A DNA stretch of 45,930 nt, taken from IMG/VR virus record IMGVR_UViG_3300025600_000009. One strand, given 5' to 3'. Shown one piece after another: positions 3,017 to 45,930 of this stretch (within the stretch, counting starts at the first letter, position 1; every line of letters begins with the position of its first letter). The notes beneath the pieces are model-generated. The model saw only the letters and a program-made list of their open reading frames with translations, had not been told where the DNA came from and ran no database searches. Source of the stretch: a virus. The position numbers were made by a program, and so were the translations under genes.

Positions 3017-3559
3017 TTAACTGAATATTTGAAGAATATATTCATCACTGAACAATCTGATTTGCAGCAGGTTCACAATTCTGTTTTTATTCCTGGATAT
3101 AGTTCTGACATCAACATCAAAATATTCTGCAAGTTGTTCCCGGGTTTGTTCTTCAAAATATTTCATCCTGATGATCTCAAAGTATGGATCATCTTTCAGC
3201 ATATCAATTGCAGCATCAATCACCTTGATGAAGTTTCTTGTTGTCTGAATGCTGCCTTCAATGCTTTCAATCTTTTCTTCTGCCTTTTCATTATCGGTCT
3301 TGATTTCATATGAAGCATTACCTGCAAAGGATGTGATGCTTTTGCTTTTCCCTGGAAGTCCTTCTTCCTTGATCCCTTTGATCTGTTCATACTTATCATC
3401 AATTGCAGATTTAAAATTGTTATAATTATAAAGCAGGGTTTCTGTTTTCTGAAATGGTGATTGTCTATTATCTTTCAAAAGTCCTTGTCTTTTAAATTCA
3501 GAAGCGGTCTTTCTGACTGCTGCATCAATGTATTTTTCAATAATTTGTTCGTTATTCAT
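3017..3559 (-). CDS. Late-gene transcriptional activator, sigma-70 region-4-like (ArpU/RinA-type)
   Basis: 180 aa. C-terminal HTH QTREQLAEYFDVDVRTISRNKNRIVNLLQIRLF resembles sigma region 4. Located just upstream of the packaging genes. Confidence 0.65.
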   Translation of the reverse strand: MNNEQIIEKYIDAAVRKTASEFKRQGLLKDNRQSPFQKTETLLYNYNNFKSAIDDKYEQIKGIKEEGLPGKSKSITSFAGNASYEIKTDNEKAEEKIESIEGSIQTTRNFIKVIDAAIDMLKDDPYFEIIRMKYFEEQTREQLAEYFDVDVRTISRNKNRIVNLLQIRLFSDEYILQIFS

Positions 3560-3900
3560 AAATTATCCTCACTTTCTCTAATTTCACCTTGAACCTGGAA
3601 CTTTACCTTGAACCGATAAGAATATAGTAATATCAATGGTTTCAGCTTAAAAAATGCCTTTGCGGTTCAAGGTTCAAGGTGACTTCCCTATTATAGATTT
3701 ATTTTAAGAGTATATATAAAATTTTGATGATTTTTAAAATAATATAAGAAGTTATAAGTACCTTGAACCCCTTGAACCGATACCCAACAAACCCAGTGTT
3801 TTCATAAGGTTTCAGCGGTTCAAGGTGATATGATTTTATATTGAACCACCTTGAACCGAACCTTGAACCTCATTCCCACCACTACCACTAATTTATTGAA
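3560..3900. promoter_or_regulatory. Iteron-rich regulatory region A: about 10 GGTTCAAGG/CCTTGAACC boxes plus a 55-bp core (3662-3716) identical to 21076-21130 in inverted orientation
   Basis: Boxes at 3587-3595, 3606-3614, 3664-3672, 3671-3679, about 3761, 3770, 3818, 3841, 3849 and 3860. Perfect TATAAT on the minus strand at 3695-3690, pointing at gene 3559. Confidence 0.8.
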
Positions 3901-3912
3901 TAAAGGAACAAA

Positions 3913-4108: not shown

Positions 4109-4693
4109 TCAGACCCCCTTGACCTTTGAAGCATACATGTCAGCCTGATGTGTCCATAATACTGTTTCATACTTTCTGATTGCTCTGTCATAATAATCCC
4201 AGTCTGCTTTTTCATAAGCACCCATGTGATACCTGATGCAAAGAATTTCTTCTTCTGTTAGGTGCATCCATGCTGCAAGCTTCATGATTGACTTATCACC
4301 ATGACCAGGGAACAAACTGTCTGTTGTATATTCCCAGTGACTTTCTTCGCCTTTGGGTGTGTCCAATCCCATCAACTGAATACCTTCAACATCAATGACC
4401 TTTTCATATAGATCAATCTTGCAAAGATCATGGAACATTCCAACTATGTAAGGGGATCGTTCCAGTTCCCATTTAATGCCCATCTTTTCAGTAAAGTTCA
4501 CCAGGGTTTCAGTTACTTCAAAACAGTGATCAAACAATCCACCTTCATAATTACCATGATATTTCCTTGAAGCAGGGGCAGTGAAGAAACCCTGATCCAT
4601 CAACCATGCTGTGAGATCTTCACTGATACCTGCATTCAACATGATCTTCATGAACATTTCAATTCTTTTATTTACTGTGATCATCTGTGTCAT
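4109..4693 (-). CDS. HD-domain phosphohydrolase
   Basis: 194 aa. H..HD signature: HGNYEGGLFDHCFEV, MFHDLCK, GHGDKS. Confidence 0.7.
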   Translation of the reverse strand: MTQMITVNKRIEMFMKIMLNAGISEDLTAWLMDQGFFTAPASRKYHGNYEGGLFDHCFEVTETLVNFTEKMGIKWELERSPYIVGMFHDLCKIDLYEKVIDVEGIQLMGLDTPKGEESHWEYTTDSLFPGHGDKSIMKLAAWMHLTEEEILCIRYHMGAYEKADWDYYDRAIRKYETVLWTHQADMYASKVKGV

Positions 4694-4946
4694 TAGTCAC
4701 ACCATCCTTTTCATATCTGATTGCTGATTCTGTTGCCAGGAAGCAAGGTTGAACAGTTCGACCCATAATGTAAAGATAGATCTTACCTGATGCAGCAAGC
4801 TGTTCTTTTTCCTTTTCATCCAATTCCCAAACTGTTTCAATCCCCGGGGTTACACCATCATCACACATATATCTTGTACCAGGTAGATCCTGACATCCTT
4901 CACTAACAAAGGTCACATTGCTTGTTTCTGATTTTACTGGTTTCAT
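4668..4946 (-). CDS. Hypothetical protein
   Basis: 92 aa ORF in the early operon. No motif recognised. Confidence 0.5.
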   Translation of the reverse strand: MKPVKSETSNVTFVSEGCQDLPGTRYMCDDGVTPGIETVWELDEKEKEQLAASGKIYLYIMGRTVQPCFLATESAIRYEKDGVTNDTDDHSK

Positions 4947-5239
4947 TTATAATATTCCTCCCACGCTTCATCTTTTAATTTATTAATTTTGTTCCTATCG
5001 ACATCAACTAAATGATCAATAATTTCTCTGTCAGCAATTTCAGTTCTATTTTGCTGTGAATTGAATTTACGAAGTACAATTAATAATTTTTTATAAGTTT
5101 TGTGCTGATTTTTAGCAATTTCTTTTGCAAATTCAGGATTTATGTCTTTCTCAATTAAATATTTCCATTGATCTTGTCTTATTGATAATCCAAGGAAACC
5201 AATATAATCAATACATTCATTATCCGAAACTTCAACCAT
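4943..5239 (-). CDS. Hypothetical protein
   Basis: 98 aa ORF. Its stop and start overlap neighbouring genes (translational coupling). Confidence 0.5.
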   Translation of the reverse strand: MVEVSDNECIDYIGFLGLSIRQDQWKYLIEKDINPEFAKEIAKNQHKTYKKLLIVLRKFNSQQNRTEIADREIIDHLVDVDRNKINKLKDEAWEEYYK

Positions 5240-5240
5240 A

Positions 5241-5542: not shown

Positions 5543-5749
5543 TTAATCACCAACCTTCAAGGGAACAAACATTTCATGAGTGGTGACTGTTGCCCCATTA
5601 CATTCAATAATGATCTTGGTATGTGGGCAGTAATTTTGAAGCATCCATTCTTGAACTGGTTTAACAAGTTCAGCGAACTGTTCAATCTTGTCAAACTTAT
5701 CATCTGTAAGCATTGAAACTTCTTTTGGTTCATCATTAATTATTTTCAT
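5543..5749 (-). CDS. Hypothetical protein
   Basis: 68 aa ORF in the early operon. Its start overlaps the stop of the upstream gene. Confidence 0.5.
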   Translation of the reverse strand: MKIINDEPKEVSMLTDDKFDKIEQFAELVKPVQEWMLQNYCPHTKIIIECNGATVTTHEMFVPLKVGD

Positions 5750-6165
5750 TTTTCATCATCCTTTCGTATTGGTATATCCTGCATTTCAGGGTGGTTCTTT
5801 TCCATATAAATTGCAAAAGCAATGTTCCAAAGTGCTGCCCTTAAATGGGGTTCATCTTTCATTCCTCTCAAATAGCATGAAAGATGCCTTATTCCTGAAT
5901 CTATTAAACTATGGATTGGAATGCCTTTTTCACAATTACGTTCACCATACTTCAATGCACCTTCTTCACAATGCAGTGCAAGTTCATGAATTGCATCCCA
6001 GGGGATCAAATCATATCTTCCTTTTCCTTGGTGCATATCACGAACAGCACCAGTTCCAAATTCCGTTCTGTTTCCACTGTCCTTGATACTGACCCTTTCA
6101 CATGAAGGGCAAACCTGCCTTCCTTCCGGGATGGTTTCCCCACAACATACACAAGTATCTTTCAT
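5746..6165 (-). CDS. dATP/dGTP pyrophosphohydrolase-like (MazG-like/DUF5664-type) protein with N-terminal zinc ribbon
   Basis: 139 aa. CVCCGETIPEGRQVCPSC zinc ribbon, then GKGRYDLIPWDAIHELALHCEEGALKYGERNCEKG, typical of the phage dNTP diphosphohydrolase N-terminal domain. Confidence 0.6.
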   Translation of the reverse strand: MKDTCVCCGETIPEGRQVCPSCERVSIKDSGNRTEFGTGAVRDMHQGKGRYDLIPWDAIHELALHCEEGALKYGERNCEKGIPIHSLIDSGIRHLSCYLRGMKDEPHLRAALWNIAFAIYMEKNHPEMQDIPIRKDDEK

Positions 6166-6181: not shown

Positions 6182-7198
6182 CTAATGTGGTATATTATTG
6201 AATTTTAAAATTTCATCTAATCCAAGTCCATTTTCTTCAAGTGGTTTCATACAATACTCATACAATTTTGGATGTGTTTCTTGCATCTGCTGAAACCTAT
6301 TTGGTTTCTTTTCAAGGTGACATCCGAACATACAAAACATGCAACCTGTTCTTTTGCAACCTGATGTTGTAAGCTGTTCATCAACTTCAATAATGTCACC
6401 ATACACACTTGCATATGGAATTTGATATATCTTTAAATAATTAAGTACATCCTGCTCAGTCCAAAATGACATTGGTTGTGATTTTGGATCTTTACTGTCA
6501 AATGAATTACATCCATTTTGCAACCATGCTTGCCTTCTTGCACTACTTTCACATGCCATTGTTCCAAGTATAGGCATTTTTCCTGATTCTTTTTGATAGA
6601 TCTTAATAGGTTTCTTCTTCATGATTTCACAACACTGATCAGAAACTTTAAATTTACTATCTATCATTGGAATCCATCTTTTTGATAGTTTGAATGATTT
6701 AGTTATCGTTCCATCTCTTTTAATTCCAGTCATGTATAAATTGACTGTTGCTTTATTATTTTCAGTTGGATTTTGACAATCACGAATCATTCTTGCTATT
6801 TTTTTACTTCCTATTGGATAACCAACTTTTAAAATAACCTCTTTAAAATTCATTTCAGGACTAACAGTTACAAGTTCTATTTCAATGTTGTATTTTAACT
6901 CTAAATACTTTGCAAACTGTGGAACGAATTTTCTTATTTCAGGATATTCCAGTCCTGTGTCTGAAAAACATAATGTTAATTTATTGTGACCGCATTCACT
7001 ACAATATTTTGCAACCATATCGGCAAGAACAGTGCTATCTTTTCCACCGCTAAAAGAAACATAGACTTCATTTTCAAATTTTTCAAAGAAAATTCTTAAT
7101 CTTGTTAAACTCATTCTTATCTTTAAGTCCAGGGGAAGTGATTGCATTTGATCTAATTCCCAAGGTTCGTGCCTATTCGGATTTTTATTTTCTGACAT
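6182..7198 (-). CDS. PAPS-reductase/DndC-IbrA-like PP-loop ATPase with C-terminal Cys cluster
   Basis: 338 aa. PP-loop SFSGGKDST. C-terminal CKRTGCMFCMFGC cysteine cluster. Confidence 0.7.
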   Translation of the reverse strand: MSENKNPNRHEPWELDQMQSLPLDLKIRMSLTRLRIFFEKFENEVYVSFSGGKDSTVLADMVAKYCSECGHNKLTLCFSDTGLEYPEIRKFVPQFAKYLELKYNIEIELVTVSPEMNFKEVILKVGYPIGSKKIARMIRDCQNPTENNKATVNLYMTGIKRDGTITKSFKLSKRWIPMIDSKFKVSDQCCEIMKKKPIKIYQKESGKMPILGTMACESSARRQAWLQNGCNSFDSKDPKSQPMSFWTEQDVLNYLKIYQIPYASVYGDIIEVDEQLTTSGCKRTGCMFCMFGCHLEKKPNRFQQMQETHPKLYEYCMKPLEENGLGLDEILKFNNIPH

Positions 7199-7213: not shown

Positions 7214-9097
7214 TTACTTTGGAACAAATATTCTGTATTTTTTACCATTGATTTTCTTATCTGCAATAACTACTTCATAAAACTTTTTAACCTGCTTTGA
7301 GAACTCACCATTTGATAAAGCTTGCAAGCTATTTGACAAGCAGTATTCATGGTATGCCTTATAAACTTGATTTGTTGGTTCATTCTCAACCTGATCCTTG
7401 TCCAGTTCCTTGAAAAAACCAAGGATTGGATTGTTGTTTTCTTCAAATTCTTCAAGTTCTCTTTGAACCTTTTCCGATTCAGTAAAGTTCCTGTTGTTCA
7501 AAACCCTTTTCAATCCAACAAGTCCAACCTGGATCATATATTCAATTGCTTCCTGACTTTTCAGCAGATCACCGATAAATGGAACATAATCAGGATCAGT
7601 GGAAGTGAACTTTGCATTGAAGGGAACAATGATCAGCCTTCTAAGTATTGCAGTTGAATCCCTTCCTTTTCCGATCCTTGGAATGTTGTTTGCTGAAAAC
7701 AGCAGCTTCACATATGGTTCAAATTCAAACTTTGGTTGACCCTTTTGTTCAGCATCTATGGTTTCCCCGGTAACAATTTTCTTGAAGTCTGCTGCATCAG
7801 TGATGAATTCTTCTGATATATCATCACCAATGTTTGCAAGCTTTCCAAAGATCATGACTGTGCTGAACCTATCATTTAACTTTTTCAGATCCAGTGCTGA
7901 AACATTCCTTTTTCCAAGCATTGTTTTCAGCATATTCAATAATGTTGATTTTCCATTGCTTCCTGATCCAGTTAATATGAATGCTTTTCCAAGTTCATTT
8001 CTTCTGAACATGCAATATCCAATCATTTCTTCAAGTAACATTCTGATGTCCTTATCATCACATGCAATCTTGTCCAGGGTCTTATCTGTTAGATCATCAT
8101 GTGCATTTGGATTGTAATCCCAGTCAATCTTGTTTGTGATAATATGTTCATGTGAAAAGGGGATGAAGCTGTCATCATGTATGTTCAAAAGTCCATTCCT
8201 GAATGCAATCCAATTGGCATCTGTGGAAGGTGTGTTTTCTCTGATCATAATATCCAAGTATGACAAGACTTCTGTTCTCTTTGCTCTGTTCAGTTGTGGA
8301 ATGTGCTTGATCATTTCTGATTCGATTTCAGACAATCCACTGACATAAATTCCATCTTTGTATGAATGCAGTTGGTTGTTGATCCTTATAATGTGATGAT
8401 TGTTTTTTAAAAAGGTTGCAAACTTATCAAATAAAAAAGCTGTTCCCATAAAGAAGATAGGTTTTGCAAAAGCTTCATCACGAAGGATAATTTCAATTTC
8501 ATCATCTGATAAAGGATCTTTCAGGATATTTTTGTTGATGATCCTGATTGTTTCCCTTGCTTCTTCAACTTGAAAGTCACTTGATTGTAATGTTAATATG
8601 TAGTTGAACAAAGCTTGGTTTCTTCCATCACCTGCTTCCATGCTGATGAAGTCCATATTTGTTTTAATAGGGAACAGCCACTTTGGAAGATCTTGTGCTT
8701 CTTCATTTGTTGCAGTATCATAAAGGATCTTTCTTTCCTTATTGCCGAACTTCAAAATTGAATATGAATTTCTTTTTCCAATTTTGATGTCAGCAGTGAT
8801 TCCAATTGCAAGGTTCGCGTGGGTTCTGTTTGTTTCCACTGCTGAATTCTTAAATAAGAAGTGCTTTCCCCGGGTTGTTTCATATACTCTGCATTGAAGT
8901 TTCTTTTCTTGAACTATTTTGAACAATAGTTCACTTGGTTCAAATTCATCCACATCAATCAGAATTGTGTTTGTGTTCAATATTCCTGCAAATTCAGGCA
9001 GTGATTTCACTTGTTCATAGGATTTGAAATCAGTTCTTCCTTTGAATTTTTCTATGCATTTTTTATCTTTGGTTTCAACATATCCTTTGAAGAACAA
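7214..9097 (-). CDS. Bifunctional primase-polymerase / D5-P4-type helicase (replicative primase-helicase)
   Basis: 627 aa. N-terminal prim-pol motifs (LIDVDEFE, TTRGKHFLF). Walker A GSGSNGKST, with a P4/D5-like C-terminal region. Confidence 0.8.
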   Translation of the reverse strand: MFFKGYVETKDKKCIEKFKGRTDFKSYEQVKSLPEFAGILNTNTILIDVDEFEPSELLFKIVQEKKLQCRVYETTRGKHFLFKNSAVETNRTHANLAIGITADIKIGKRNSYSILKFGNKERKILYDTATNEEAQDLPKWLFPIKTNMDFISMEAGDGRNQALFNYILTLQSSDFQVEEARETIRIINKNILKDPLSDDEIEIILRDEAFAKPIFFMGTAFLFDKFATFLKNNHHIIRINNQLHSYKDGIYVSGLSEIESEMIKHIPQLNRAKRTEVLSYLDIMIRENTPSTDANWIAFRNGLLNIHDDSFIPFSHEHIITNKIDWDYNPNAHDDLTDKTLDKIACDDKDIRMLLEEMIGYCMFRRNELGKAFILTGSGSNGKSTLLNMLKTMLGKRNVSALDLKKLNDRFSTVMIFGKLANIGDDISEEFITDAADFKKIVTGETIDAEQKGQPKFEFEPYVKLLFSANNIPRIGKGRDSTAILRRLIIVPFNAKFTSTDPDYVPFIGDLLKSQEAIEYMIQVGLVGLKRVLNNRNFTESEKVQRELEEFEENNNPILGFFKELDKDQVENEPTNQVYKAYHEYCLSNSLQALSNGEFSKQVKKFYEVVIADKKINGKKYRIFVPK

Positions 9098-17245: not shown

Positions 17246-18115
17246 TTATGCCTTGATGCCAGTGATCTTCAAGAATTTATCTGCATCAAAGTTTGGAATA
17301 TTTCTGATGATGTTTTTGTTTCTTTCTGACATACCATTCCACCATTCAGTGCAGCAATCTGTGTTGTCACGAATCTTCAAATATCCACCAGTTGTTTCAT
17401 GTTCAGGATGATCAGCCTTTTCAGAATCAGTCATTTCATTTGTCCATATCCAGTCAGCAGGTCTGAAATCAATCTGATTCAGAAGGTATCTTGCATCTGA
17501 ATTCTGCCATTGATCAAATGTCATGTCTGCTTCCTGATCAAAGAATTTCAACTTCTGACTTTCAGTGTTGAAACAACCCATGGTTTGGGAAGCTTTGTTC
17601 CAATCACCGCTGTTCCGATTACCGCTGTTCCGATTACCGCTGTTCCGATTACCGCTGTTCCAATCACCGCTGTTCCGATTACCGCTGTTCCGATTACCGC
17701 TGTTCCGATTACCGCTGTTCCAATCACCGCTGTTGCAATCACCGCTGTTCCGATTACCGCTGTTGCAATCACCGCTGTTCCAATCACCGCTGTTGCAAAG
17801 ACCAGTGCAGGCTTTCCCTATATTGACCAGGGTCAGAACTTCCTGCCATGTGATTTCCCTTACAATTTGGATCTTGTTAGTGCAGCATTTGTCACCTTCT
17901 TCTGAAACTTCACCAAGTGTGAGAATTTCAGCAACTTTATTGTTAGGATCAAATCCATAATAGTTGAAACAATCTTTTGCTTCCTTGCAGAAGTGAAACC
18001 CTCTATCACATACACTTGGGTTGACCTTTTCTTCATAAGTCTGACCAATTTGATATTGAAACCCCCTACATGTCCAATCAGGGTTGAAAACTTTGAATCC
18101 CTTTATAGCTTCCAT
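17246..18115 (-). CDS. Pentapeptide-repeat protein with a conserved phage N-terminal domain
   Basis: 289 aa. N-terminus FKVFNPDWTCRGFQYQIGQTYEE...CDRGFHFC, then 13 NSG(D/N)(W/R/C) pentapeptides. Confidence 0.8.
   Translation of the reverse strand: MEAIKGFKVFNPDWTCRGFQYQIGQTYEEKVNPSVCDRGFHFCKEAKDCFNYYGFDPNNKVAEILTLGEVSEEGDKCCTNKIQIVREITWQEVLTLVNIGKACTGLCNSGDWNSGDCNSGNRNSGDCNSGDWNSGNRNSGNRNSGNRNSGDWNSGNRNSGNRNSGNRNSGDWNKASQTMGCFNTESQKLKFFDQEADMTFDQWQNSDARYLLNQIDFRPADWIWTNEMTDSEKADHPEHETTGGYLKIRDNTDCCTEWWNGMSERNKNIIRNIPNFDADKFLKITGIKA
17597..17791. repeat. 13 x 15-bp tandem repeat encoding the pentapeptide repeats, with a 60-bp higher-order unit duplicated exactly
   Basis: Units are gttccaatcaccgct, gttccgattaccgct or gttgcaatcaccgct. 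17597-17656 equals 17657-17716. Confidence 0.9.
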
Positions 18116-19276: not shown

Positions 19277-19693
19277 TTATGCACCAATGTATTCATTTAG
19301 CAGCTTGGGTGAAATGTGATATGAATATCTGCTTGAAAGCTTCACTGCAAATCCAAATTTAACAATTCCCCTTTGAAGTGCCACCCTGATGAACTGTTCT
19401 GACTTATCAAGTCTTTTCGCTGCTTCTTTTATTGGAACATTCTTCAAACCTTGTGGATCATCAGTTGCATCACTGCATGTGGTCAATCCATTTAAGAAAG
19501 CAGGTGAAACATCAAGTGCTTCTGCAATCTTTTCTGTTGCCTTTGCTTTTGGTTCATTCTTGCCTGATAGATACTGACTAATTGAAGATTTTCCAATCCC
19601 GGTCAAAGCTGAAAGTTCAGCTTGTGACATGTTCCTTTCTTCCATTGCTTGTTTCAAATTATCTGAATAACTCATTTTCAACCATCCTTTCAT
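19277..19693 (-). CDS. XRE-family HTH regulator with a C-terminal extension
   Basis: 138 aa. LKQAMEERNMSQAELSALTGIGKSSISQYLSGKNEPK is a classic XRE HTH. Confidence 0.75.
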   Translation of the reverse strand: MKGWLKMSYSDNLKQAMEERNMSQAELSALTGIGKSSISQYLSGKNEPKAKATEKIAEALDVSPAFLNGLTTCSDATDDPQGLKNVPIKEAAKRLDKSEQFIRVALQRGIVKFGFAVKLSSRYSYHISPKLLNEYIGA

Positions 19694-19875: not shown

Positions 19876-20067
19876 TTAATTTTCTTCTAAAAAATAATCA
19901 ACAGTAACACCAAAAAAATTTGCTATTTTCTGCAATTTATCAATTTTAGGTGTGTAATTACCGTTCTTCCATTCTGATAAAGTTGATGTTGCTATACCTA
20001 TTTCCTTAGATACTTGATATGCAGTCATGTTATTCTTTTCCAATAATTCAGCAAATTTTTTATACAT
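19876..20067 (-). CDS. Cro-like XRE HTH repressor
   Basis: 63 aa single HTH domain, divergent from cI. About half of its residues are identical to the cI N-terminal 60 aa by eye. Confidence 0.8.
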   Translation of the reverse strand: MYKKFAELLEKNNMTAYQVSKEIGIATSTLSEWKNGNYTPKIDKLQKIANFFGVTVDYFLEEN

Positions 20068-20285: not shown

Positions 20286-20945
20286 ATGTATGAAATATTT
20301 GAAAATCTATTGAACGAAAAAGGCATTACCACTTATCAGTTAGCCAAAGAAACTGGAATTTCTACTGCCACATTTTCAAACTGGAAGAATGGGAAATACA
20401 AACCTAAAGATGAAAAATTGCAGATCTTAGCAGATTATTTTGGTGTAACCCTTGAATATCTGAAAGGATCAACAAAATTTAATACCAAGGAAGAAGAACT
20501 TGCCAATATAATAAAAGAAGCAAAATATTGTGGTGGACTTAAAAAAGTCAAGTCCGTTCAAATTCCAGTTTTGGGGAAGGTTGTGGCAGGAATACCATTA
20601 GAAGCAATCGAAGAAATACTTGATTATGAAGAAATACCAGAAGAAATGACACTATTGGGACAATACTTTGCTTTGAAAGTGCAAGGTGATTCCATGCAAC
20701 CAAGGATTTGTGAAGATGATGTCCTGATAGTAAGAAAGCAAAGCACCGCAGAATCAGGTGAAATTGTTATCGCATTAGTGAATGGACATGATGCTACTTG
20801 TAAAAAATTGATTAAGCACCAAGAAGGCATAAGCCTTGTATCATTCAATTCTGCATTTGAACCAATGTACTTTTCAAATAAGGATATTATTGAAATGCCT
20901 GTGCATATCATTGGAAAAGTCATTGAAAACAGACAAAAGTATTAA
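20286..20945 (+). CDS. CI-like repressor: XRE HTH plus S24 LexA-type autopeptidase
   Basis: 219 aa. N-terminal HTH. C-terminal GDSMQP (catalytic Ser) and TCKKL (Lys), typical of RecA-stimulated self-cleaving repressors. Confidence 0.9.
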   Translation: MYEIFENLLNEKGITTYQLAKETGISTATFSNWKNGKYKPKDEKLQILADYFGVTLEYLKGSTKFNTKEEELANIIKEAKYCGGLKKVKSVQIPVLGKVVAGIPLEAIEEILDYEEIPEEMTLLGQYFALKVQGDSMQPRICEDDVLIVRKQSTAESGEIVIALVNGHDATCKKLIKHQEGISLVSFNSAFEPMYFSNKDIIEMPVHIIGKVIENRQKY

Positions 20946-21226
20946 GGGTTCAAGATAAAGTTCCAGGTGGTTCAATGTAAAGTTCAAGGTAAAAGCATTG
21001 ATATTGCTGAAAAGTTCAAGGGGTTCAATGTTACTGTGATTTATAAGTAATTAATAAAAAAATTTATAATTTACTTATATACTCTTAAAATAAATCTATA
21101 ATAGGGAAGTCACCTTGAACCTTGAACCGCTGACAATAAAAAAGAACCGCAAACCCTTGAAAATACAAGGTTGTCAGCGGTTCAAGGTAAGGGTTCATGG
21201 TTCAAGGTCAAAATTAGAAAGGAAAG
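20946..21226. promoter_or_regulatory. Iteron-rich regulatory region B, an inverted diverged copy of region A: about 10 boxes, 55-bp identical core 21076-21130, TATAAT at 21097-21102
   Basis: Boxes at about 20947, 20969, 20982, 21014, 21022, 21113-21121, 21120-21128, 21179-21187, 21192 (degenerate) and 21199-21207. 18-bp perfect inverted repeat 21119-21136 / 21171-21188. Confidence 0.8.
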
Positions 21227-21688
21227 GTGAATATTATGTTTGGAAAGAAAAAAGAAGATCAGAAAGTTTTACTTGGAAATTTGGTTGAAGGTTTACCAGT
21301 ACATGAAGGAATGGATCTTATTGTGAAGATGACACCTGATGGTGCAGCAATCATGATCCCAAGCAGCAAACAAAATTTTGATATTAACATTTCAAAATTA
21401 ACATCAGTTGAATCCTATTCTGAAACTGATGTTGAAAAGATCATCAGTCAGTCTGCCCCGGGAATGATTATTGGTGCTGCTGCATTTGGAATTCTTGGTG
21501 CAATGGTTGGTGGAAGGGTCAAGACTAAAGATAAGAAAGTGGTCACATACTTTGCTGTGATCAATTATGAATCTGATGGTAAGAAGCAAATTGTCATTGA
21601 AACAAAGGATTTCTTTGGTGCAGGTCAATTTGTTGATTATTTTAAGAAGTTGAAACCTTCCTTTGAACCAAGTTCAATTTCATTGTAA
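21227..21688 (+). CDS. Lysogeny-module membrane-associated hypothetical protein (moron candidate)
   Basis: 153 aa. AAAGGTGA ribosome-binding site. Gly/Ala-rich hydrophobic segment PGMIIGAAAFGILGAMVGG. Lies between cI and int. Confidence 0.6.
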   Translation: MNIMFGKKKEDQKVLLGNLVEGLPVHEGMDLIVKMTPDGAAIMIPSSKQNFDINISKLTSVESYSETDVEKIISQSAPGMIIGAAAFGILGAMVGGRVKTKDKKVVTYFAVINYESDGKKQIVIETKDFFGAGQFVDYFKKLKPSFEPSSISL

Positions 21689-21818: not shown

Positions 21819-22835
21819 ATGAAAAATCCAAATGGATATGGAACTGTTGTCAAATTATCAGGTAATAGAAGAAACCCTTTTGCAGTTAGAAAAACAATAG
21901 GATGGAATGACAAAGGTCATCCAATATTTCTTCCCATTGGATATGCTGCAAGCAGGGAAAATGGAATGATTATGCTTGCTGAATACAATAAGTCACCTTG
22001 GGATATAGATGCAGAAAAGACCACCCTGGAAAGCCTGTTTGATCTATTCAAAGAAAAGAAGATGCTTAAAATGGGAAAGTCAACAAAAGGATCACTGACT
22101 GCTGCATTCAAGCATTGTTCCAAAATCAAGAAAATGAAATACAAAGACATGAAGTCCTTTCACATGCAGGATGTCATTGATAATTGTGGATGTGGGTATT
22201 CAACACAATGGGCAATCAAGAACCTATTTGGACACCTGGACAATTTTGCACTTGAAATTGATGTGATCAACAAATCATATGCAGTTTTGACAACAGCAGA
22301 ACCGATCCCTGAAACAAAGAAGCTGCCATTCACTGATGAAGAAGTGGATCAGGTATGGAAGATCAAAGATGATCCTTGGGTTGATTCAGTCCTGGTGTTT
22401 TTATACACTGGATTCAGGATCAGTGAATTGTTGGATATTAAAACAGTAAATGTGGATCTTGAAGCAAGAACCATTCAAGGTGGTACAAAGACCAAAGCAG
22501 GAAAAGACAGAATCATTCCGATCCATCCAAAGATCTTTGAAATTATTCAGAAAAGGGTTGATGAAGGAAATGCATATTTGTTCACCCTGGAAGGAAAGAA
22601 ATTGACCAGTTCAAAGTATTATGAGTTTTGGAATGTGATCATGGATGAACTAAAATTGAACCATACACCACATGAATGCAGACACACTTTCAGATCAAGA
22701 TTAGATTCAGCAGGTGCAAACAAAGTGTGCATTGACCTGATGATGGGACATAAATCAAAGGAAGTTGGGGAAAGAATTTACACACATAAGAAGCTTGAAG
22801 AATTGAAGTTTGCAATTGAACTAATATCACGTTAG
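21819..22835 (+). CDS. int: Tyrosine integrase with AP2-like N-terminal DNA-binding domain
   Basis: 338 aa. N-terminus GYGTVVKLSGNRRNPFAVRK. Catalytic region TGFRISE...HECRHTFRS...MGH...IYTH (R, HxxR, H, Y). Confidence 0.9.
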   Translation: MKNPNGYGTVVKLSGNRRNPFAVRKTIGWNDKGHPIFLPIGYAASRENGMIMLAEYNKSPWDIDAEKTTLESLFDLFKEKKMLKMGKSTKGSLTAAFKHCSKIKKMKYKDMKSFHMQDVIDNCGCGYSTQWAIKNLFGHLDNFALEIDVINKSYAVLTTAEPIPETKKLPFTDEEVDQVWKIKDDPWVDSVLVFLYTGFRISELLDIKTVNVDLEARTIQGGTKTKAGKDRIIPIHPKIFEIIQKRVDEGNAYLFTLEGKKLTSSKYYEFWNVIMDELKLNHTPHECRHTFRSRLDSAGANKVCIDLMMGHKSKEVGERIYTHKKLEELKFAIELISR

Positions 22836-25169: not shown

Positions 25170-25430
25170 TTACACCATCCCTTCATATAGTTCAACCAAA
25201 GCAAGCTGTGTGTCTGTGACTTGTGCTTCCAAGCTTTGGTTCTTTTCAGCTATGATCTTGATGTATTCATCTTTTTCATACTGGATCATGTCATACTCAA
25301 AACCATTGAAAGCTTCTTCACCAACAACTTCTTCCACTGGAACAATGTTTGAATTGATCCAAACATTTACTTCATCAACCACCATTGGTTGGGGTTGGAC
25401 TGTGCTTCTTACTTTTCCATAATCTTTCAT
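25170..25430 (-). CDS. XkdW-like small acidic protein
   Basis: 86 aa. The start overlaps the RT stop. C-terminal TDTQLALVELYE and the position after the tail fibre resemble xkdW-type genes. Confidence 0.4.
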   Translation of the reverse strand: MKDYGKVRSTVQPQPMVVDEVNVWINSNIVPVEEVVGEEAFNGFEYDMIQYEKDEYIKIIAEKNQSLEAQVTDTQLALVELYEGMV

Positions 25431-26494
25431 TTGAACATTCCACCTTTCATATAAATATTTTTAAGATAATAATTGATTGCAAACTGTTGAATTGGTTCAA
25501 CATATTTCTTACTTAACCTATAACTATTACAATGGATCAACCATCCTTTGTATGAATTAAATGAACACCATTCAGAATAAGTCATTTCTATTCCTTCAAT
25601 CTGCTTTTTATTTAAAGCAATCATTTTTCTTTTGAATTGCTTGCAGGTTGATTTCCTAAGAAGTTTGTAATTCATGAATGTTCTGTATCCAACAAAATCA
25701 ATCCCACGAACATATGTGGGGAACACTTGCCAGTTTTCTTTGATTTTCAACTTTAATTTCTTTCTGAAATATTGATCAATTTCATTTTTCAGTTGATGAA
25801 GTTCTTCTTTGGTGCTTCCCAGGATCACAATATCATCCATGTATCTGAAATAATGCTTCACACGTTTCACTTCCTTGATCCAGTGGTCAAATTCTGAAAA
25901 ATAATAGTTCCCACTATACTGTGAAAGATAATTTCCAATAGGAATTCCTTTGTTCCCAGGTGTCGAATCAATAATTTCATCAAGCAACCAAAGAAGATCC
26001 GCATCCTTGAACAGCTTTCTGTATTTGGTTTTTAAAATATCATGATTGATAGATGGATAATACTTTTTACCATCTAACTTCAAACAATACTGTGATCCGG
26101 GAACATCATGCTGCACTGCATCATTTAATCTGTTCAAACAAAGATGAATTCCCTTTCCAGGTATTGCTGAATAGGTGTCATTAGTAAGATTTTTCAGCAG
26201 GATTGGTTCAATGATCTGTAATATTGCCCACTGACAAATTCTATCAGGGAAGTATGGTAATTTATATATTTCTCTATCTTTTCCACTATCGTGTTTTATA
26301 AAAGTTTCATATTTTGAAGTTTGGTATGTTTTATTGATCAACATTTCTCGAAGTAACCCAAAATAATATTCAGGGTTTTGATCAACCATTTTTACTTCTG
26401 TATACCATCCTTTTCCTTTCTTTGCATTTTGATGTGCAAGTTTTAGGTTGTCCATGTCGCAAATCTTCTCATATAAATGTCCGTATTTTTTCAT
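25427..26494 (-). CDS. DGR-type reverse transcriptase
   Basis: 355 aa. RT motifs LKLDGKKYYPSINH, GIPIGNYLSQ (the DGR-typical ...SQ), YMDD, GIDFVGY. An adjacent TR/VR pair is present. Confidence 0.9.
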   Translation of the reverse strand: MKKYGHLYEKICDMDNLKLAHQNAKKGKGWYTEVKMVDQNPEYYFGLLREMLINKTYQTSKYETFIKHDSGKDREIYKLPYFPDRICQWAILQIIEPILLKNLTNDTYSAIPGKGIHLCLNRLNDAVQHDVPGSQYCLKLDGKKYYPSINHDILKTKYRKLFKDADLLWLLDEIIDSTPGNKGIPIGNYLSQYSGNYYFSEFDHWIKEVKRVKHYFRYMDDIVILGSTKEELHQLKNEIDQYFRKKLKLKIKENWQVFPTYVRGIDFVGYRTFMNYKLLRKSTCKQFKRKMIALNKKQIEGIEMTYSEWCSFNSYKGWLIHCNSYRLSKKYVEPIQQFAINYYLKNIYMKGGMFK

Positions 26495-26844: not shown

Positions 26845-28899
26845 TTATGCTGCATCAGGTACATACACCAAGCGACCGCCGAAACCCCGATGACGATACG
26901 AAGAAGAATTAATCACACTCCAACAGAAACCACCACCAGTAGACGAATAAGCCCAACTACCGCCCAATAGAGCGATAAACCAGGAAGCAGAAGTATGTGC
27001 TTGATATAAGTAATCACCAACTGGAAGTGCTGTATCACCTGTTGTTTCACTTGCAAAGAATAGCCAATCAAATTCTTCATTGTATGCAAAAGCTGAAATA
27101 TAACCATTTGCCCTTGAAATGGTTATTCCTGAATCTTTGTATGGATCAGCACTGATGTTATCAACAAATCCATGATCTGCAACATATAAACTGTTTTCGT
27201 TATATGCATAAATATTCAGACCATCAACAAACTTGTAAATATTCATCCAAAAGTTTTCTTCACCACGATATGAAACAGATCCATTTGCAACCGCACCTGA
27301 TGAATTACCAAGTAATGTTGTTGCACCAGTAGGTTCAGACATATTGGTTGTACCATCATCAGTTTTCATGACACCCATTCCAATCTTGGATTGTGTATTC
27401 ATGGAAGCATATTCAATTGTGAATAGAAGCTGTGTTGCTGCAACTGTTGCTGCATAAGCCTGATTCCATCCTGCACCACGATTGTTTGCAATGATCCTTG
27501 TCTTTGCCCTGGTCATGTCTTGAGTCACTCCACTTGCAGGTTTTGCATAAGCAATGGATGAAAGTATGTCACCAGTTGAAGCAGTGAAGTCTGCAATCTG
27601 TTCATCAGCTAATAAATAAGCAAGTGATGTTTTGTCATATACTGAACCTTCATATGCTGAAAGATATATGAAGTTCTTTTCTTTACCATTATGGATGAAA
27701 GCCGGGTGAAGTTTGAAGCCTGTTTTCTTCACATCAGAAACATAATATCTTGCTTTTCTCATGTGGAAGCCTTTTGCAACCTTACCTGAAAGGGTCTTTG
27801 TAACTGTTGCAGTCACACCTGTTGTTCCACCACTGAATGTTGCTGTGACCTTTTCACCAGTTGCAAGTGCTGTGAATGTTACTGATGCACCTGATCCACC
27901 AGTTGTCCAACCTGCAAATGCTGCTGCTCTGATCTTGGTTGCAACCAATGTTGTTGTGTTGTCTGTTGTAGCAACTGCCACTGTGAAATCTTTACCATCA
28001 AGATTTATTGTCACATTTCCATCTGCTGTTGGAACTGCTGTCACTGCAATTGTATTGACTTCTTTATATTCAATCTTTTCAAGCTTTAATGGTACAACCT
28101 TATAGTAAAATCTTGGTTGTTCAACCATAACTTGAACTGGATGATTTACTGGATAAGTCACACCATTTTTAATAACTGCTTGTGCCAGTTTTCCTATTTC
28201 CACATATGCTGCATCACCATAATAAGCAAGAACCTTTCCATCATCAGTGACATTGCATCTTTTTCTTCCACCAAATGCCTTGATATTATCAAACATTGCA
28301 CCTGCTGTTCTATTGACTGCACCTGCAAGCCTTGTGAATGTCTTACTTACAAAGTCAACTTCAACACCAAAAATGTCAGCATCAGTGTATCCAACATATG
28401 ATTGAAGATCTGAAATTTGATTCTGTAAGTCTGTAATATTTCCGATTGTCGCAACTGCACCTGGATCAACATTCAGTGAAACACTTGAAGCATTTGAAAC
28501 AGTTGTAACCAGTTTGAAGAATGCACCTGAAACTGTGATCCCATTGTATGGGGGCATGTAACCTGCAACACTTGCAATGGTAACTGCATAAAGAATTTCA
28601 CCATCCTGTGGATCAAGGGCAAAAAGTCCGATTGCTCTCATGTAGTAACCAGTCACAACACCAGTATTTGTGATTGCACCTTCAATCTGAACAGCAACAT
28701 CATTGGTTCTGATTACCTTGCTGACCAAAGTGGTTTGCTTTACTCCTGATAATGCTGTGAGTGCTTGAAGTTGTGCATCAGTGTATGTTGTATCTGAAAC
28801 ATTGATCTTTGTAAACTGAACATTTCCTGTTCCTGCAAGCATCTTTGCCATAAGTGCTTGACCTTTGTTTGTAATAATTAACTGCTTAAATTCAGCCAT
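26845..28899 (-). CDS. Tail fibre / receptor-binding protein with C-terminal DGR-diversified lectin-like domain
   Basis: 684 aa. N-terminus MAEFKQLIITNKGQALMAK...QFTKI resembles tail-fibre N-terminal domains. The C-terminus LLGGSWAYSSTGGGFCWSVINSSSYRHRGFGGRLVY is a typical DGR VR scaffold. Confidence 0.85.
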   Translation of the reverse strand: MAEFKQLIITNKGQALMAKMLAGTGNVQFTKINVSDTTYTDAQLQALTALSGVKQTTLVSKVIRTNDVAVQIEGAITNTGVVTGYYMRAIGLFALDPQDGEILYAVTIASVAGYMPPYNGITVSGAFFKLVTTVSNASSVSLNVDPGAVATIGNITDLQNQISDLQSYVGYTDADIFGVEVDFVSKTFTRLAGAVNRTAGAMFDNIKAFGGRKRCNVTDDGKVLAYYGDAAYVEIGKLAQAVIKNGVTYPVNHPVQVMVEQPRFYYKVVPLKLEKIEYKEVNTIAVTAVPTADGNVTINLDGKDFTVAVATTDNTTTLVATKIRAAAFAGWTTGGSGASVTFTALATGEKVTATFSGGTTGVTATVTKTLSGKVAKGFHMRKARYYVSDVKKTGFKLHPAFIHNGKEKNFIYLSAYEGSVYDKTSLAYLLADEQIADFTASTGDILSSIAYAKPASGVTQDMTRAKTRIIANNRGAGWNQAYAATVAATQLLFTIEYASMNTQSKIGMGVMKTDDGTTNMSEPTGATTLLGNSSGAVANGSVSYRGEENFWMNIYKFVDGLNIYAYNENSLYVADHGFVDNISADPYKDSGITISRANGYISAFAYNEEFDWLFFASETTGDTALPVGDYLYQAHTSASWFIALLGGSWAYSSTGGGFCWSVINSSSYRHRGFGGRLVYVPDAA
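26863..26982 (-). repeat. DGR variable repeat (VR) at the 3' end of the tail-fibre gene
   Basis: 28 mismatches to the TR by hand alignment. 27 lie where the TR has T on the plus strand (A on the coding strand). One is a synonymous non-A change (26677 vs 26899). Confidence 0.85.
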
Positions 28900-42555: not shown

Positions 42556-44568
42556 TTAATCACCAACCCTTTCCAACATAGCTTGAATAAACTTATCAAG
42601 TTCTTCAACCAGTTCAGGTTTATCTGCTTTTAACAGTTTAACCAAATCAGGTCTTGTTATACTTAAAGCACCATAGTTTGCAACAGTTTCATGGATCTGT
42701 GATTCTGCTGATCTATAATATTTACTACCATGACCATATTTCACAATACCACTATCACGATATGAACCCTTTGATAATGCATCATAAATGTCTTGAAGGT
42801 TTCCAATTCCACCACCCATTGCATTCCTGGATGCATAGTCAATTTCATCAACCATGTTGGATCTAAGTTTCTTTGAAACCTTCTCATATTCTTTATATGC
42901 TTTAATATCAGAAAAAGCACTTCCATTTTCACCAAGGTGTGAGATACGTGAAGCAGTGATTTGTTCCTGGTACTTCTTGGACAACTCACCATGAACTTCT
43001 TTGTACTTCACATTATAGGTCTTAAATAGATCACTGACTTCATCTGACATTCCAGTTCCACTTTTGTTGAAAGCTTCAACCAATGACTTCTGTTCTGTAC
43101 TGAACCAATTACCTGATTTGGTTACATCCTTTCTGCAATATAAGTCCATCAAGTGCATTTCTTCATGTAATGTTGTATTTACTTGACCACTAAGATCTTC
43201 ACCATCTAACTTTGGAATGGTCAATTTGGATTGAACCAATTCACCCTTGTAATTATATGAATAATTGACTGAATATCCTTTTGCATGTGAAATGCTGAAA
43301 GGAATATTGTTTGATGTTAGGGTTTCCAATTTGCCTATGTTACTATATAATTTCACTGCATTTGGATCTGCACCATCAAGTCTATTAATAAAATCAATAA
43401 GTTTCTGTGTGTTATTAATTTCTGACTTGGTTGTGAATTCAGCAGGGAAGTTGGACAATTCCAATTGAACCCTTTTAACATTTTCTGTCTTATCCTTCAT
43501 TATATCACCAGGATCAACTTCTGCAAGTCCTTCTTTTGATCCACCTTCTGTGAAAGACTTCTTCCAATCCGGGTATTTCATATCACTTGGTACATAGTAG
43601 GTCTTTCCATCAGCACCCCTTGCTGCCCTTTCTGTGAAGTTATCTTCAAAGTAGGGAACAGTAGTAGTTCTACACCAAACATGGAAGGGTGGGGCAGTGA
43701 CCCCTGCTTCATAATCCTTAATGTCAAATACATGACCATCAAGATCCTGACATATTGCTGATGTGTGACTGTCCAGGGTTGCAACAATTTCAAACCTTTC
43801 AACATCAAGATCATTGAATGCATCCTTTTGTGAAGCTGATGCAAAGTAAGCTGATTCAGTCATGACCAACCTTCCTGCATTCTTATTGGATGTATTCATT
43901 TTTCCTGCTATATTTCTAATTGCATCATCAGGGGATCTTCCAAGTATAGTCATTTGGGTCAGTTCACCATGCAGTTCATTGACCAGTTTGGACTTGTTAC
44001 CCCAAAGTCTTTCACTGAAATTCTTTCCATCAACTGCCCAAGGTTTTGAAATTATCTTTTCAAGTTTATTCTGATCAATGGAAGCTATATCCCAACCAAT
44101 ATTGAAACCCTTTTGAACTTCATATACTGTATGATAATAACCATTGGTGTAAAGCTTTTTCATCAGGGTGTCCATTCCATCAAGTTGGTTTCCAAATAGA
44201 ACTTCCATTGAATTCTGTGTTTGCAGCTTCAAAGCTTCAAGTCTTGATATATGAAACCTTGCTGATGCATTTTCAAGTTCTGTCATCCACATTTGGTTCA
44301 GTTCATTTTGTTCACCATATTTGATGTACTCTTTGACATCCCATTTCAGTTCAGCCAGTTCCTTTGTAGAAAGAAGCTTTCTTGCTTCTGCCATTGTTAT
44401 ATTGTTATTGACTGCAAATCTTCCATACCAGGATTGGATCTGACCTTCAATAGTTCTTTGTGCTTTGGAATAATAACCTTCAACTTCACGATATAGGGAA
44501 GAAGCATCCTTGTTTTTAGCTTCTTCAAGCTGTTCAAACCGTTTCTTCCAATAGTTACTATGCTTCAT
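42556..44568 (-). CDS. Head morphogenesis protein (SPP1 gp7/Mu F-like) with an extra ~300-aa C-terminal domain carrying HExxH
   Basis: 670 aa. gp7 core ...TLDSHTSAICQDLDGHVFD...PPFHVWCRTTTVPYF. The C-terminal half contains LHEEMHLMD (43153-43167). Confidence 0.8.
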   Translation of the reverse strand: MKHSNYWKKRFEQLEEAKNKDASSLYREVEGYYSKAQRTIEGQIQSWYGRFAVNNNITMAEARKLLSTKELAELKWDVKEYIKYGEQNELNQMWMTELENASARFHISRLEALKLQTQNSMEVLFGNQLDGMDTLMKKLYTNGYYHTVYEVQKGFNIGWDIASIDQNKLEKIISKPWAVDGKNFSERLWGNKSKLVNELHGELTQMTILGRSPDDAIRNIAGKMNTSNKNAGRLVMTESAYFASASQKDAFNDLDVERFEIVATLDSHTSAICQDLDGHVFDIKDYEAGVTAPPFHVWCRTTTVPYFEDNFTERAARGADGKTYYVPSDMKYPDWKKSFTEGGSKEGLAEVDPGDIMKDKTENVKRVQLELSNFPAEFTTKSEINNTQKLIDFINRLDGADPNAVKLYSNIGKLETLTSNNIPFSISHAKGYSVNYSYNYKGELVQSKLTIPKLDGEDLSGQVNTTLHEEMHLMDLYCRKDVTKSGNWFSTEQKSLVEAFNKSGTGMSDEVSDLFKTYNVKYKEVHGELSKKYQEQITASRISHLGENGSAFSDIKAYKEYEKVSKKLRSNMVDEIDYASRNAMGGGIGNLQDIYDALSKGSYRDSGIVKYGHGSKYYRSAESQIHETVANYGALSITRPDLVKLLKADKPELVEELDKFIQAMLERVGD

Positions 44569-45930
44569 CTACAACACCGCCTTGACCAACAATCTTACCG
44601 GGAACAGCAGGTTGTGGAAAAGCAGCAGCATATTCATCCATTTCCTTTTTCTTTTCTTCTGCCTTCCTTGCAAGTTCTCTTTGTGGATCATCAACCCAAG
44701 GATGATTTTCCACAATGGTTTCATCAGATAGAATTCCAACTGACTTCTGACCATTTTCAATCACTTCTGTTTCATTGATCAGAATGTCACGATTGAATAT
44801 GACTTCAACTTCTTCCTGTTCAAAGTCACCAAGACTTGCATTGAACAAATGAACATTTACAAACCAAAGCAGTTCTTCAAAGGAAGCCTGAAATTCAGTT
44901 TCCATTTCATTTGCATCAAGATCAATGTCAGAATACATGGACTGAATGTTCATCTGATTTGGATTTCCTGACATTCTATCATCCTTTGCATCATATCCTT
45001 TGGCATTCTCAATGATTGCCTTCTTGAAGATTTCAAGGATTGACTTGTAATTCTCTGCATTGACTTCAACCTGCAATGTTTTAAGATCACCACCTGCACC
45101 ATCAACTGTCTTGACCTTAACTGCACCATAGGTTGCCAGGTTCTTTCTAAATTCACCAAGATTTTCACCATCATAGTTCACCAGGACAAGGATTGTGTTC
45201 CTTGCATCTTCTTCCATGTTGTTTTGGAAGTTGGAAAGAATAGTATTCAATCCATCCTGCAAGGTTTTAACTTTCTTGATCAAAGGGATCTCTTTTGAAT
45301 TATATTTCCATGGGATCAGTGGGATCTTTGACCAGTTCCAACCTTGTTCAACAATCTGATCATCTTCTTCATCAATAGTTGTGAAGTAGGTGCTGAAAGG
45401 AACATCATCAGGAACAATGTGACCACCTTCCATGACAAATCTATATATTCCAGTTTCATCATAGACTTCAACCTTCTCAATGACCTTCTCATGCTGTCCT
45501 TCATATGCAATGACTTCATATATCCTGATCACATAATCAAGTGTTGTATGCTCTGTATCTGACCAACCTGGTATGATTTCATAAGCTTTGAACCGCTTGA
45601 AGGTGAATTCACCATGTTCATCATAATACATGAATATCCAACCAATACCAGTGTTCAAAGCATCTTCACCAACATTCTTGATCAGCCTTTGGAACTTCTT
45701 ATTGAAGATCTGTTTTAGCAGCTTGTTGTATGGTTCATTTTCAGACTTGAAAACAATAGGTTGACCAAGTAGGTAGTTCTTTTTCTGATCCACCATCTTT
45801 CCATATTGGTTGTCAACGATCCTGTTATTTGGAAGGTTCTTCACTTCTTCCAGTTCACCATTCTGACCAATGACTGTTCTTTTCCTTCTTAAAATATCAT
45901 GGTGTCCATCATGGTATCTTTCACCATCAA
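44558..45930 (-). CDS. Portal protein (SPP1 gp6-like), main part; the N-terminus continues at 266..128 across the junction
   Basis: NLPNNRIVDNQYGKMVDQKKNYLLGQP is a typical SPP1-family portal motif. The ORF stays open to the window end. Confidence 0.9.
   Translation of the reverse strand, partial: DGERYHDGHHDILRRKRTVIGQNGELEEVKNLPNNRIVDNQYGKMVDQKKNYLLGQPIVFKSENEPYNKLLKQIFNKKFQRLIKNVGEDALNTGIGWIFMYYDEHGEFTFKRFKAYEIIPGWSDTEHTTLDYVIRIYEVIAYEGQHEKVIEKVEVYDETGIYRFVMEGGHIVPDDVPFSTYFTTIDEEDDQIVEQGWNWSKIPLIPWKYNSKEIPLIKKVKTLQDGLNTILSNFQNNMEEDARNTILVLVNYDGENLGEFRKNLATYGAVKVKTVDGAGGDLKTLQVEVNAENYKSILEIFKKAIIENAKGYDAKDDRMSGNPNQMNIQSMYSDIDLDANEMETEFQASFEELLWFVNVHLFNASLGDFEQEEVEVIFNRDILINETEVIENGQKSVGILSDETIVENHPWVDDPQRELARKAEEKKKEMDEYAAAFPQPAVPGKIVGQGGVVDEA
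45804..45930. repeat. Terminal redundancy, second copy of 1-127
   Basis: Exact 127-nt match to the window start. Confidence 0.9.

Follow-up and report, generated by a model that had tools for sequence, protein, structure and literature searches.

What purpose do two inverted, repeat-rich intergenic regions serve in the genome of a temperate phage, when each precedes an outward-facing gene and the pair brackets the early and immunity region? The question is raised by IMG/VR virus record IMGVR_UViG_3300025600_000009, a stretch of 45,930 bp (the window) which is a circular temperate phage genome, bases 1-127 recurring at 45804-45930 (127-bp terminal overlap). We consider the two regions, termed elements A and B (Table 1), to be two copies of an iteron-type replication-origin element with a probability of about 0.65, and origin recognition, as judged from homology and anatomy, is at that same level their most likely function. 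A preliminary description of the window had offered three alternatives, namely a duplicated promoter and operator array, a bipartite origin served by a primase-helicase of the P4/D5 type, and substrates for inversion of the segment between the regions. The bipartite origin is the best supported of these because of the homology of the phage helicase to PriRep5, an anatomy similar to that of the origins of Staphylococcus aureus pathogenicity islands (SaPI), and the covariation of the repeat with one small part of the helicase; from these we infer both the binding and the origin activity.

The exact 9-mer GGTTCAAGG/CCTTGAACC is present 17 times in the window (shuffle mean 0.32, maximum 2), and 13 of the copies fall within the two regions, nine in A (3587-3869) and four in B (21113-21207), which bears out the earlier impression that the repeat is concentrated there. 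Six extra copies appear in B once one mismatch is allowed. A search with the 10-mer GGTTCAAGGT at no more than two mismatches gives 11 sites per region, in both orientations, close to the ten or so first counted; nine of those in A carry 0-1 mismatch. The overlapping tandem pairs were also seen correctly, ggttcaaggttcaagg occurring at 3664-3679 in A and at 21113-21128 in B. Four exact copies lie outside the arrays, at 22938-22946(+), 29654-29662(-), 30319-30327(-) and 34050-34058(-), where the expectation for the whole window is 0.32; one is in the intergenic region between int and the lysin gene and three are inside late genes.

When reverse-complemented, A aligns with B from end to end except that B is without a segment of approximately 19 bp carrying one site. 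Positions 3662-3716 are the exact reverse complement of 21076-21130 (55 bp), the identity ending at both edges, and around this core the inverted repeat extends to 74 nt at 88% identity. A TATAAT lies within the core, at 3690-3695 (minus strand) in A and at 21097-21102 in B. The collinearity and the core with its hexamer are thus as first described, and so is the location of each copy directly 5' of an outward-facing gene, although the limit of 3900 given for region A was too short, the intergenic gap running to 3912. Each element comprises about ten iterons of the form (C)GGTTCAAGGT, arranged with approximate two-fold symmetry about a centre of 81-82 bp (84% A+T) which is abutted on each side by two iterons in opposite directions. 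Element A begins with outer iterons, followed by a single inverted iteron and an inner pair that leads up to the AT-rich centre; beyond the centre come an inverted inner pair, further outer iterons and the ribosome-binding site. The left arm of B has degenerated, with 1-2 mismatches per site, and has no single inverted iteron.

Relatives of the late regulator, the gene downstream of A, and of orf153, the gene downstream of B, are accompanied by identical repeats at the corresponding positions. Pattern scans of IMG/VR, GTDB genomes and metagenomes gave approximately 100 distinct examples of the element, collagen-like coding repeats (GGT TCA AGG ...), which form same-strand arrays, having been removed from the set. 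Hosts of these examples include Clostridia known as metagenome-assembled genomes, Evtepia, Candidatus Fimivivens and the isolate Chryseomicrobium palamuruense. The layout was drawn to scale for 86 distinct phage and prophage sequences of Clostridia and Bacillales. Their common layout runs, from the left, through two to three iterons, one inverted iteron, a spacer of about 40 bp and two iterons to the AT-rich centre, and continues rightward with two inverted iterons, a 40-50-bp spacer, one to three iterons and, in fully symmetric copies, a final inverted set. The element is approximately 350 bp long, its site consensus is (C)GGTTCAAGGT, and the medians are 9.5 sites per element and a centre of 86 bp with 86% A+T. 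Many examples can be matched about their centre either way round, so that the element has a two-fold symmetry at the level of the DNA. An inverted promoter cassette had been considered for L003/L004, in which the AT segment seems to be inverted relative to the window; the appearance is produced by this same symmetry. A blastn comparison of both regions with isolated phages produced nothing useful, and a literature search for the repeat motif returned only unrelated primer sequences.

The protein proposed to bind the iterons is the D5/PriRep-type primase-helicase of the phage. It matches PriRep5 of SaPI5 (PDB 7OLA) with E = 4.6e-43 over residues 220-608, a match reaching into the C-terminal domain. 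That domain was modelled as helix-helix-beta-hairpin (predicted local distance difference test, pLDDT, 81-86 there), its closest structural matches bind DNA through winged helices (RFX and the Orc1/Cdc6 initiators, the latter in complex with origin DNA), and Pfam assigns it to Pox_D5, RFX_DNA_binding and Cdc6_C. A protein search with the domain returned fragments of helicase genes on short contigs, which were used for structure alignment and not for gene context. A gene for a relative of the window helicase is present in 549 or more IMG/VR stretches. Eighty relatives (62-81% identity) were taken with 10-kb flanks, and the array motif could be called in approximately 50 of them. Wherever an array was found it was downstream of the helicase gene, at a distance of 0.4-7.7 kb, and the two adjoin in L235 and in Paenibacillus phage Wanderer (L252, MH431930.1). 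The latter is an isolated phage whose helicase is 50% identical to that of the window; at 7845-8110 it has an element of GTAACAGAT iterons, unannotated in the record, which extends from the stop codon of the helicase gene ('DNA primase') to the start of a sigma-like regulator.

Some relatives seemingly without an array carry the identical layout built from another repeat, and the repeat changes together with the beta-hairpin wing of the helicase. Arrays of the GTTCAAG type (GGTTCAAGG) were found at 37 loci, the window included, and all 37/37 encode the basic window-type wing, mostly DKKIxGKKYRIF, with SKRIDKKVYRIF, DRRVNGKKCRIF and DKTINKKKYRMF as variants. At seven loci with GTAACA(GAT) arrays the wing is VKRIGNKTxRLF or KRxPGKGxxIVRVF (7/7). 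Four loci have CATTCAAGTT arrays and the wing (D/N)KWLN(G/K)(K/R)KHRIF, e.g. DKWLNGKKHRIF; a GGTACC(A/G)GAT array at one locus is paired with AQKKIDGKKYKIF, and arrays of GGTTCAAGA variants at two loci are paired with DKTINKKKYRLF and SKRINGTIKRIF. In four of the seven GTAACA-class proteins the N-terminal 520 residues are 76-80% identical to those of the window, closer than in most GTTCAAG-class proteins. The phages of L198 and L200 form a near-isogenic pair, approximately 95% identical overall and with helicases 99% identical over residues 1-590. Their wings are DKKISGKKYRIF and DKWLNKKKHRIF, respectively, and in the elements compared (13150-13480 in L198, 12800-13130 in L200) all array sites change together, GGTTCA(A/G)G in the one and (C/A)ATTCAAGTT in the other. 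Among the proteins compared the replicative helicase is the only one that covaries with the repeat. The repeats are therefore very probably, as the sequences indicate, binding sites for the winged helix of the helicase, and the wing is proposed to set the specificity for the iteron; DKWLNGKKHRIF and VKRIGNKTHRLF are the wings proposed for exchange with the DKKINGKKYRIF of the window.

Genes of 104-151 amino acids which encode nothing but a Pox_D5-type winged helix adjoin the element in six of seven cases (L058, L083, L126, L161, L085, L154 and L066, the last at 634-1035). Their wing is as in the GGTTCAAGG-class helicases, and their products may be competitors or regulators of initiation.

Other candidates for the reader of the repeat were considered and rejected. 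Late regulators of two unrelated types, Sigma70_r4-like and DUF1492, both follow GGTTCAAGG arrays, which excludes the late regulator as the reader; moreover, DUF1492-like regulators also follow GTAACA arrays, and a regulator of the window type follows the GGTACC array. XRE138 is 76% identical to that of the window in one GTAACA-class phage, and the identity of the family-B polymerase (PolB) is unrelated to repeat class. The operators of CI and Cro are another sequence, TTCTTAG-like (20096-20260) and unlike the iteron. As for arm-type sites of the integrase or attP, the likely attP, downstream of int, carries a different repeat, GTTAGTAACAA, and A-type elements are far from int. A resemblance of GGTTCAAGG to tRNA or its T-arm was likewise dismissed, a tRNA search having found no genes.

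The small terminase subunit TerS was also tried as binder, and with it the idea that the elements are pac or cos packaging sites, to which we attach next to no likelihood. Element A lies approximately 1 kb upstream of terS, and pac sites often contain repeated boxes. The type of TerS, however, does not follow the repeat class, being 67-71% identical to that of the window in some GTAACA-class phages and approximately 33% in most GGTTCAAGG-class phages. Many phages within one class differ in TerS, as do those of L198 and L200, in which terS and the polymerase gene have been swapped (TerS 30%, PolB 61% identical). Nor does element B, beside int, make sense in terms of packaging.

The anatomy of the element can be compared with that of SaPI and related phage-inducible chromosomal islands (PICI). 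The C-terminal winged helix of SaPI Rep proteins recognises short iterons, and the SaPI origin consists of six to twelve of these, divided between the two sides of an AT-rich centre; what is conserved is that each side has two or more, and that they point in opposite directions (PMC9371898). The window shares with these islands an initiator which is a D5-family helicase, homologous to PriRep5 and encoded by the same element, and a C-terminal winged helix, whose role in recognition rests here upon the covariation of wing and iteron. It shares too, along with the 86 relatives, at least two opposed iterons on each side of a centre of 81-86 bp with 84-86% A+T, and the position of the origin downstream of the helicase gene. 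It differs in its iteron, which is of 10 bp rather than 5-6, in a more elaborate and fixed layout with a single inverted iteron per arm, in the presence of two inverted copies per genome, and in the host element, where a complete temperate phage of Clostridia or Bacillales takes the place of a satellite.

By analogy with Rep/PriRep of SaPI and the alpha protein of P4, the winged helix of the helicase would bind iterons on both arms of the element, and assembly of the helicase would melt the AT-rich centre, upon which the helicase would load and synthesis would be primed. Element A occupies the ancestral position, after the replication module and downstream of the helicase gene, many lineages having acquired accessory genes between helicase and origin. 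Element B is a duplicate beside the lysogeny genes, its left arm decayed in the window, and might act as a second origin or as a cis-acting partner like crr of P4.

Several observations weigh against an origin. Two copies per genome are unusual for one. Element A is 3.3 kb from the helicase gene with approximately seven open reading frames (ORFs), accessory genes among them, in between, whereas the SaPI origin is immediately adjacent. The structural matches of the C-terminal domain are weak (E 0.07-0.2), and the covariation of wing and iteron is uncorrected for phylogeny and draws on a small number of independent switches, counting at a minimum the GTAACA clades, the CATTCAAGTT group and GGTACC. 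GC skew across the window shows no signal of replication and follows gene orientation only. Lastly, both copies stand exactly before a gene, and the conserved asymmetric AT centre with its -10-like hexamers would suit a regulatory role as well.

This last point leads to the promoter and operator arrays of the preliminary description. In the form considered here each AT centre would be an outward promoter, for the late regulator at A and for orf153-int at B, and the repeats would be operators by which a phage protein, perhaps the winged helix of the helicase or a stand-alone copy of it, turns the two transcription units on or off jointly. In almost every relative the distance between the final iterons and the ribosome-binding site is 10-40 nt. 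The right end of the centre (TATACTCTAAAAATAA..TATA[A/G]N) is retained whatever the iteron class and is unlike the left end. There is a perfect TATAAT, as well as a TATACT with the -35-like hexamer TTAAAA 17 nt upstream (9/12 matches), and the inner right iterons would fall at about +1 to +17, a typical position for operators. Promoter hits in A, however, are not above those in shuffled sequence (5 vs 2.6 ± 1.7), and -10-like hexamers are to be expected by chance in DNA of 84% A+T. The centre of A is without a good -35 and without a TG extension, whereas the cI and cro promoters of the same phage are perfect sigma-70 promoters (TTGACA-17-TATAAT). A one-way promoter would also leave unexplained the two-fold symmetry, including a left arm which faces the incoming convergent gene. 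The late regulator, XRE138 and CI/Cro either fail to covary with the repeat or use other operators, and the sole covarying protein is a replicative helicase. As a sole function we therefore regard promoter activity as improbable. It is compatible with an origin as an added role, and as such possible; T antigen of SV40 autoregulates at its origin.

Were the transcript to begin at the inner right iterons, it might instead be the RNA that matters: its initial CCUUGAACCUUGAACCG and the GGUUCAAGG located 40-50 nt further on would pair into a 5' hairpin, which might stabilise the mRNA, attenuate it or act as an antiterminator in the manner of put. Stems of 10-17 bp can be built from the inverted iterons (e.g. 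CCTTGAACCGCTGACAA/TTGTCAGCGGTTCAAGG in B), their alternating orientations permit mutually exclusive hairpins, and the leaders putL and putR of HK022 face outward in a similar manner. Yet one and the same 10-mer makes up every stem and is invariant over the 86 sequences, without compensatory changes, from which it follows that primary sequence is conserved and not pairing. Copies are present upstream of any possible start as well, on both strands and with symmetry at the DNA level, and the motif changes in step with a DNA-binding wing. An Rfam scan at A and B gave only chance matches to microRNA hairpins. A structured leader is accordingly very unlikely.

Paired outward-facing copies 16-17 kb apart are also present in IMGVR_UViG_2887388934_000006, in the CASSLW010000003.1 prophage and in several metagenome contigs of 43-45 kb; two-copy loci include L044+L021 and L079+L073, and one locus of the GTAACA class has another cluster of its repeat 10 kb upstream of the helicase gene. 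In the other two-element genomes the longest identity shared by the A- and B-type copies is 17-33 bp, mostly the iteron tandem, and the median between genomes is 14 bp. Of the conservation anticipated in related phages it is therefore the repeats and the layout that are found, and not the 55-bp core, which among the two-element genomes is confined to the window phage. It probably reflects a recent gene conversion between the copies, to judge from the sequences, and no functional requirement.

The same figures bear upon the suggestion that recombination between the inverted cores flips the 17.4-kb early and immunity segment. Perfect inverted identity over 55 bp and a tyrosine recombinase gene adjoining B would lend themselves to such an inversion, but none of the 33 informative junctions in relatives is recombinant (early end to int): 23 join the end of the early operon to late genes and ten the immunity side to int. 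A single junction of immunity to late genes, that of L159, belongs to a distant genome with a different gene order. With no invertase noticed among the approximately 45 ORFs of the window run against Pfam or PHROGs (most late-region ORFs lie outside these scans), with attP and a terminator apparently situated downstream of int, and with the crossover identity unconserved, the proposed inversion has found no support and is highly improbable.

For an origin in two copies the sole analogue known to us is that of phage P4, whose ori and crr are reportedly bound by the alpha primase-helicase; the structure of the origin-binding domain of alpha is also said to have been determined. The iteron of P4 is the octamer TGTTCACC, and ori and crr are approximately 4.5 kb apart and structurally different from each other. 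Common to P4 and the window are two separated clusters of one short iteron in both orientations, and the C-terminal domain of a D5/P4-type primase-helicase as the binder, here proposed. In the window, by comparison, the copies are collinear duplicates, 17.4 kb apart and inverted, which bracket the early and immunity region. A more remote parallel is provided by SV40 large T antigen and papillomavirus E1, where inverted short sites by an AT-rich tract guide two helicase hexamers into place, origin and promoters overlap, and the initiator has a second role in regulating transcription; the fold of the origin-binding domain is unrelated and the sites differ, so that the resemblance is mechanistic only. 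Phages of Streptococcus thermophilus such as Sfi21 reportedly have a non-coding ori or 'phage-encoded resistance' region downstream of a P4-like primase gene. The likeness is that of a repeat-rich non-coding region which ends the replication module after a P4-type primase-helicase gene. To our knowledge phages of the Sfi21 kind have one copy of ori. Among the distant homologues of the window helicase, those from Streptococcus phages form the largest group.

The presence of two copies before two operons also permits a more speculative proposal, which we hold to be doubtful though worth stating: the pair may act as a developmental timer. Helicase bound at A and B would bridge or loop the 17-kb early and immunity region, and the firing of the origin, or the occupancy of the iterons over the promoter-like centres, would then switch on the late regulator on one side and orf153-int on the other, stand-alone winged-helix proteins tuning the switch by competing for iterons. 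If this were true, there would be a mechanical link between the initiation of replication and both late transcription and excision.

The surroundings of the elements are as follows. The early operon is on the minus strand and opens with the gene for a two-helix-turn-helix XRE protein (19693..19277), followed by those for a methylase, a SNF2 helicase, recombination functions, SSB, the family-B polymerase and the D5-type primase-helicase, and it closes at 3913 with genes of nucleotide metabolism, after which comes element A. Beyond A lie the late regulator, terS, terL and the portal gene (45844..44558), across the ends of the window, and minus-strand ORFs continue to the lysin gene at 23018.

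Table 1. Coordinates of the origin-type elements, the proposed initiator and adjoining genes in the window
Feature	Position	Strand	Remarks
Element A	3560..3912	minus, read toward late regulator	complete origin-type element; fills whole intergenic gap
A outer left iterons	3838..3869	minus	GGTTCAAGGT at 3869-3860 and 3857-3848; degenerate GGTTCAATAT at 3847-3838
A single inverted iteron, left arm	3817..3826	plus	12-bp inverted repeat with outer iterons
A inner left iteron pair	3760..3778	minus	points at AT-rich centre
A AT-rich centre	3680..3760	none	81 bp, 84% A+T; presumed DNA-unwinding region
-10-like hexamers in A centre	3695-3690; 3714-3709	minus	TATAAT; TATACT
55-bp identical stretch	3662..3716		spans inner right iterons and right third of A centre
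A inner right iteron pair	3664..3680	plus	overlapping tandem, 7-bp spacing; opposite orientation to inner left pair
A outer right iterons	3586..3614	minus	3614-3605, degenerate 3602-3593, 3595-3586; just upstream of late-regulator ribosome-binding site
Element B	20946..21226	plus	second copy, inverted orientation; between CI-type repressor gene and orf153-int
B AT-rich centre	21031..21112	none	82 bp, 84% A+T
B inner right iteron pair	21112..21128	minus	overlapping tandem
B outer right iterons	21179..21208	plus	21179-21188, degenerate 21192-21201, 21199-21208; just upstream of orf153
D5/PriRep-type primase-helicase	7214..9097	minus	627 amino acids; Pfam D5_N, DUF5906, Pox_D5; proposed iteron-binding initiator
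Helicase C-terminal winged-helix domain	7217..7540	minus	amino acids 520-627
Beta-hairpin wing	7226-7261	minus	D613-F624, DKKINGKKYRIF
Late regulator	3017..3559	minus	sigma-70 region-4-like, phrog_36; gene directly downstream of A
Cro-like gene	20067..19876	minus	diverges from CI gene
CI-type repressor	20286..20945	plus	with S24 peptidase domain
orf153	21227..21688	plus	membrane-protein-like; downstream of B
Tyrosine integrase int	21819..22835	plus	after orf153

A probable attP and a bidirectional terminator (22846-22885) are likely downstream of int. Repeats of the GTTAGTAACAA type (22832-23017) flank the int stop codon and the region past this terminator, and complementary copies follow terL and terS (677-701 and 2012-2033); they may be arm-type sites of Int or attP, or a motif associated with terminators. 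Between the unit of the late regulator and orf97 and terS there is on the minus strand a stem-loop with a T-run (AAAAAGACCC...GGGTCTTTT, 2538-2711), with TTGACA upstream and TATAAT just before the terS ribosome-binding site, and this region is probably the place where the late regulator acts. A cluster of genes of the nucleotide- or DNA-modification type between the helicase gene and A (4109-7198, minus strand) includes those for an HD phosphohydrolase (4109..4693), a protein with the N-domain of dATP/dGTP diphosphohydrolase (5746..6165) and a PAPS-reductase-like protein (6182..7198), and may point to modified DNA bases.

Two further repeat systems were noticed. A diversity-generating retroelement occupies 25427-28899 on the minus strand, with a reverse transcriptase ORF (25427..26494; Pfam RVT_1), an Rfam RT-17 RNA (26508-26607; 71 bits), a template repeat at approximately 26640-26758 and a variable repeat at approximately 26862-26980, in the 3' end of the tail-fibre gene (26845..28899); nearly all mismatches within the 119-nt repeat sit at template adenines. 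At 17536-17833, within an ORF with DUF7666 and pentapeptide-repeat domains (17246..18115), a 15-nt unit is repeated 14 times in tandem.

An iteron origin for a self-loading helicase of the D5/P4 type is a kind of element already known. New, as far as can be told, are the fixed ten-site layout with two-fold symmetry, its duplication as outward-facing copies which bracket the early region and precede the late regulator and the int operon, its breadth across phages of the Firmicutes, and the natural series of wing and iteron variants together with the stand-alone winged-helix genes beside the element. For annotation it means that such repeat arrays should not be labelled promoters, attP sites or the ends of invertible segments. 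To each of four or five iterons there corresponds a wing variant of its own, the near-isogenic pair being included, which makes the recognition code of the Pox_D5/PriRep winged helix directly testable, and the series could serve in the design of orthogonal pairs of origin and initiator. The duplicated, outward-facing layout raises the question of a coupling between replication and gene expression. Hardly any temperate phage of gut and soil Firmicutes has a mapped replication origin, and for such phages the element, with arrays in approximately 100 distinct sequences as well as in the isolated Paenibacillus phage Wanderer, provides an origin candidate that can be recognised from sequence.

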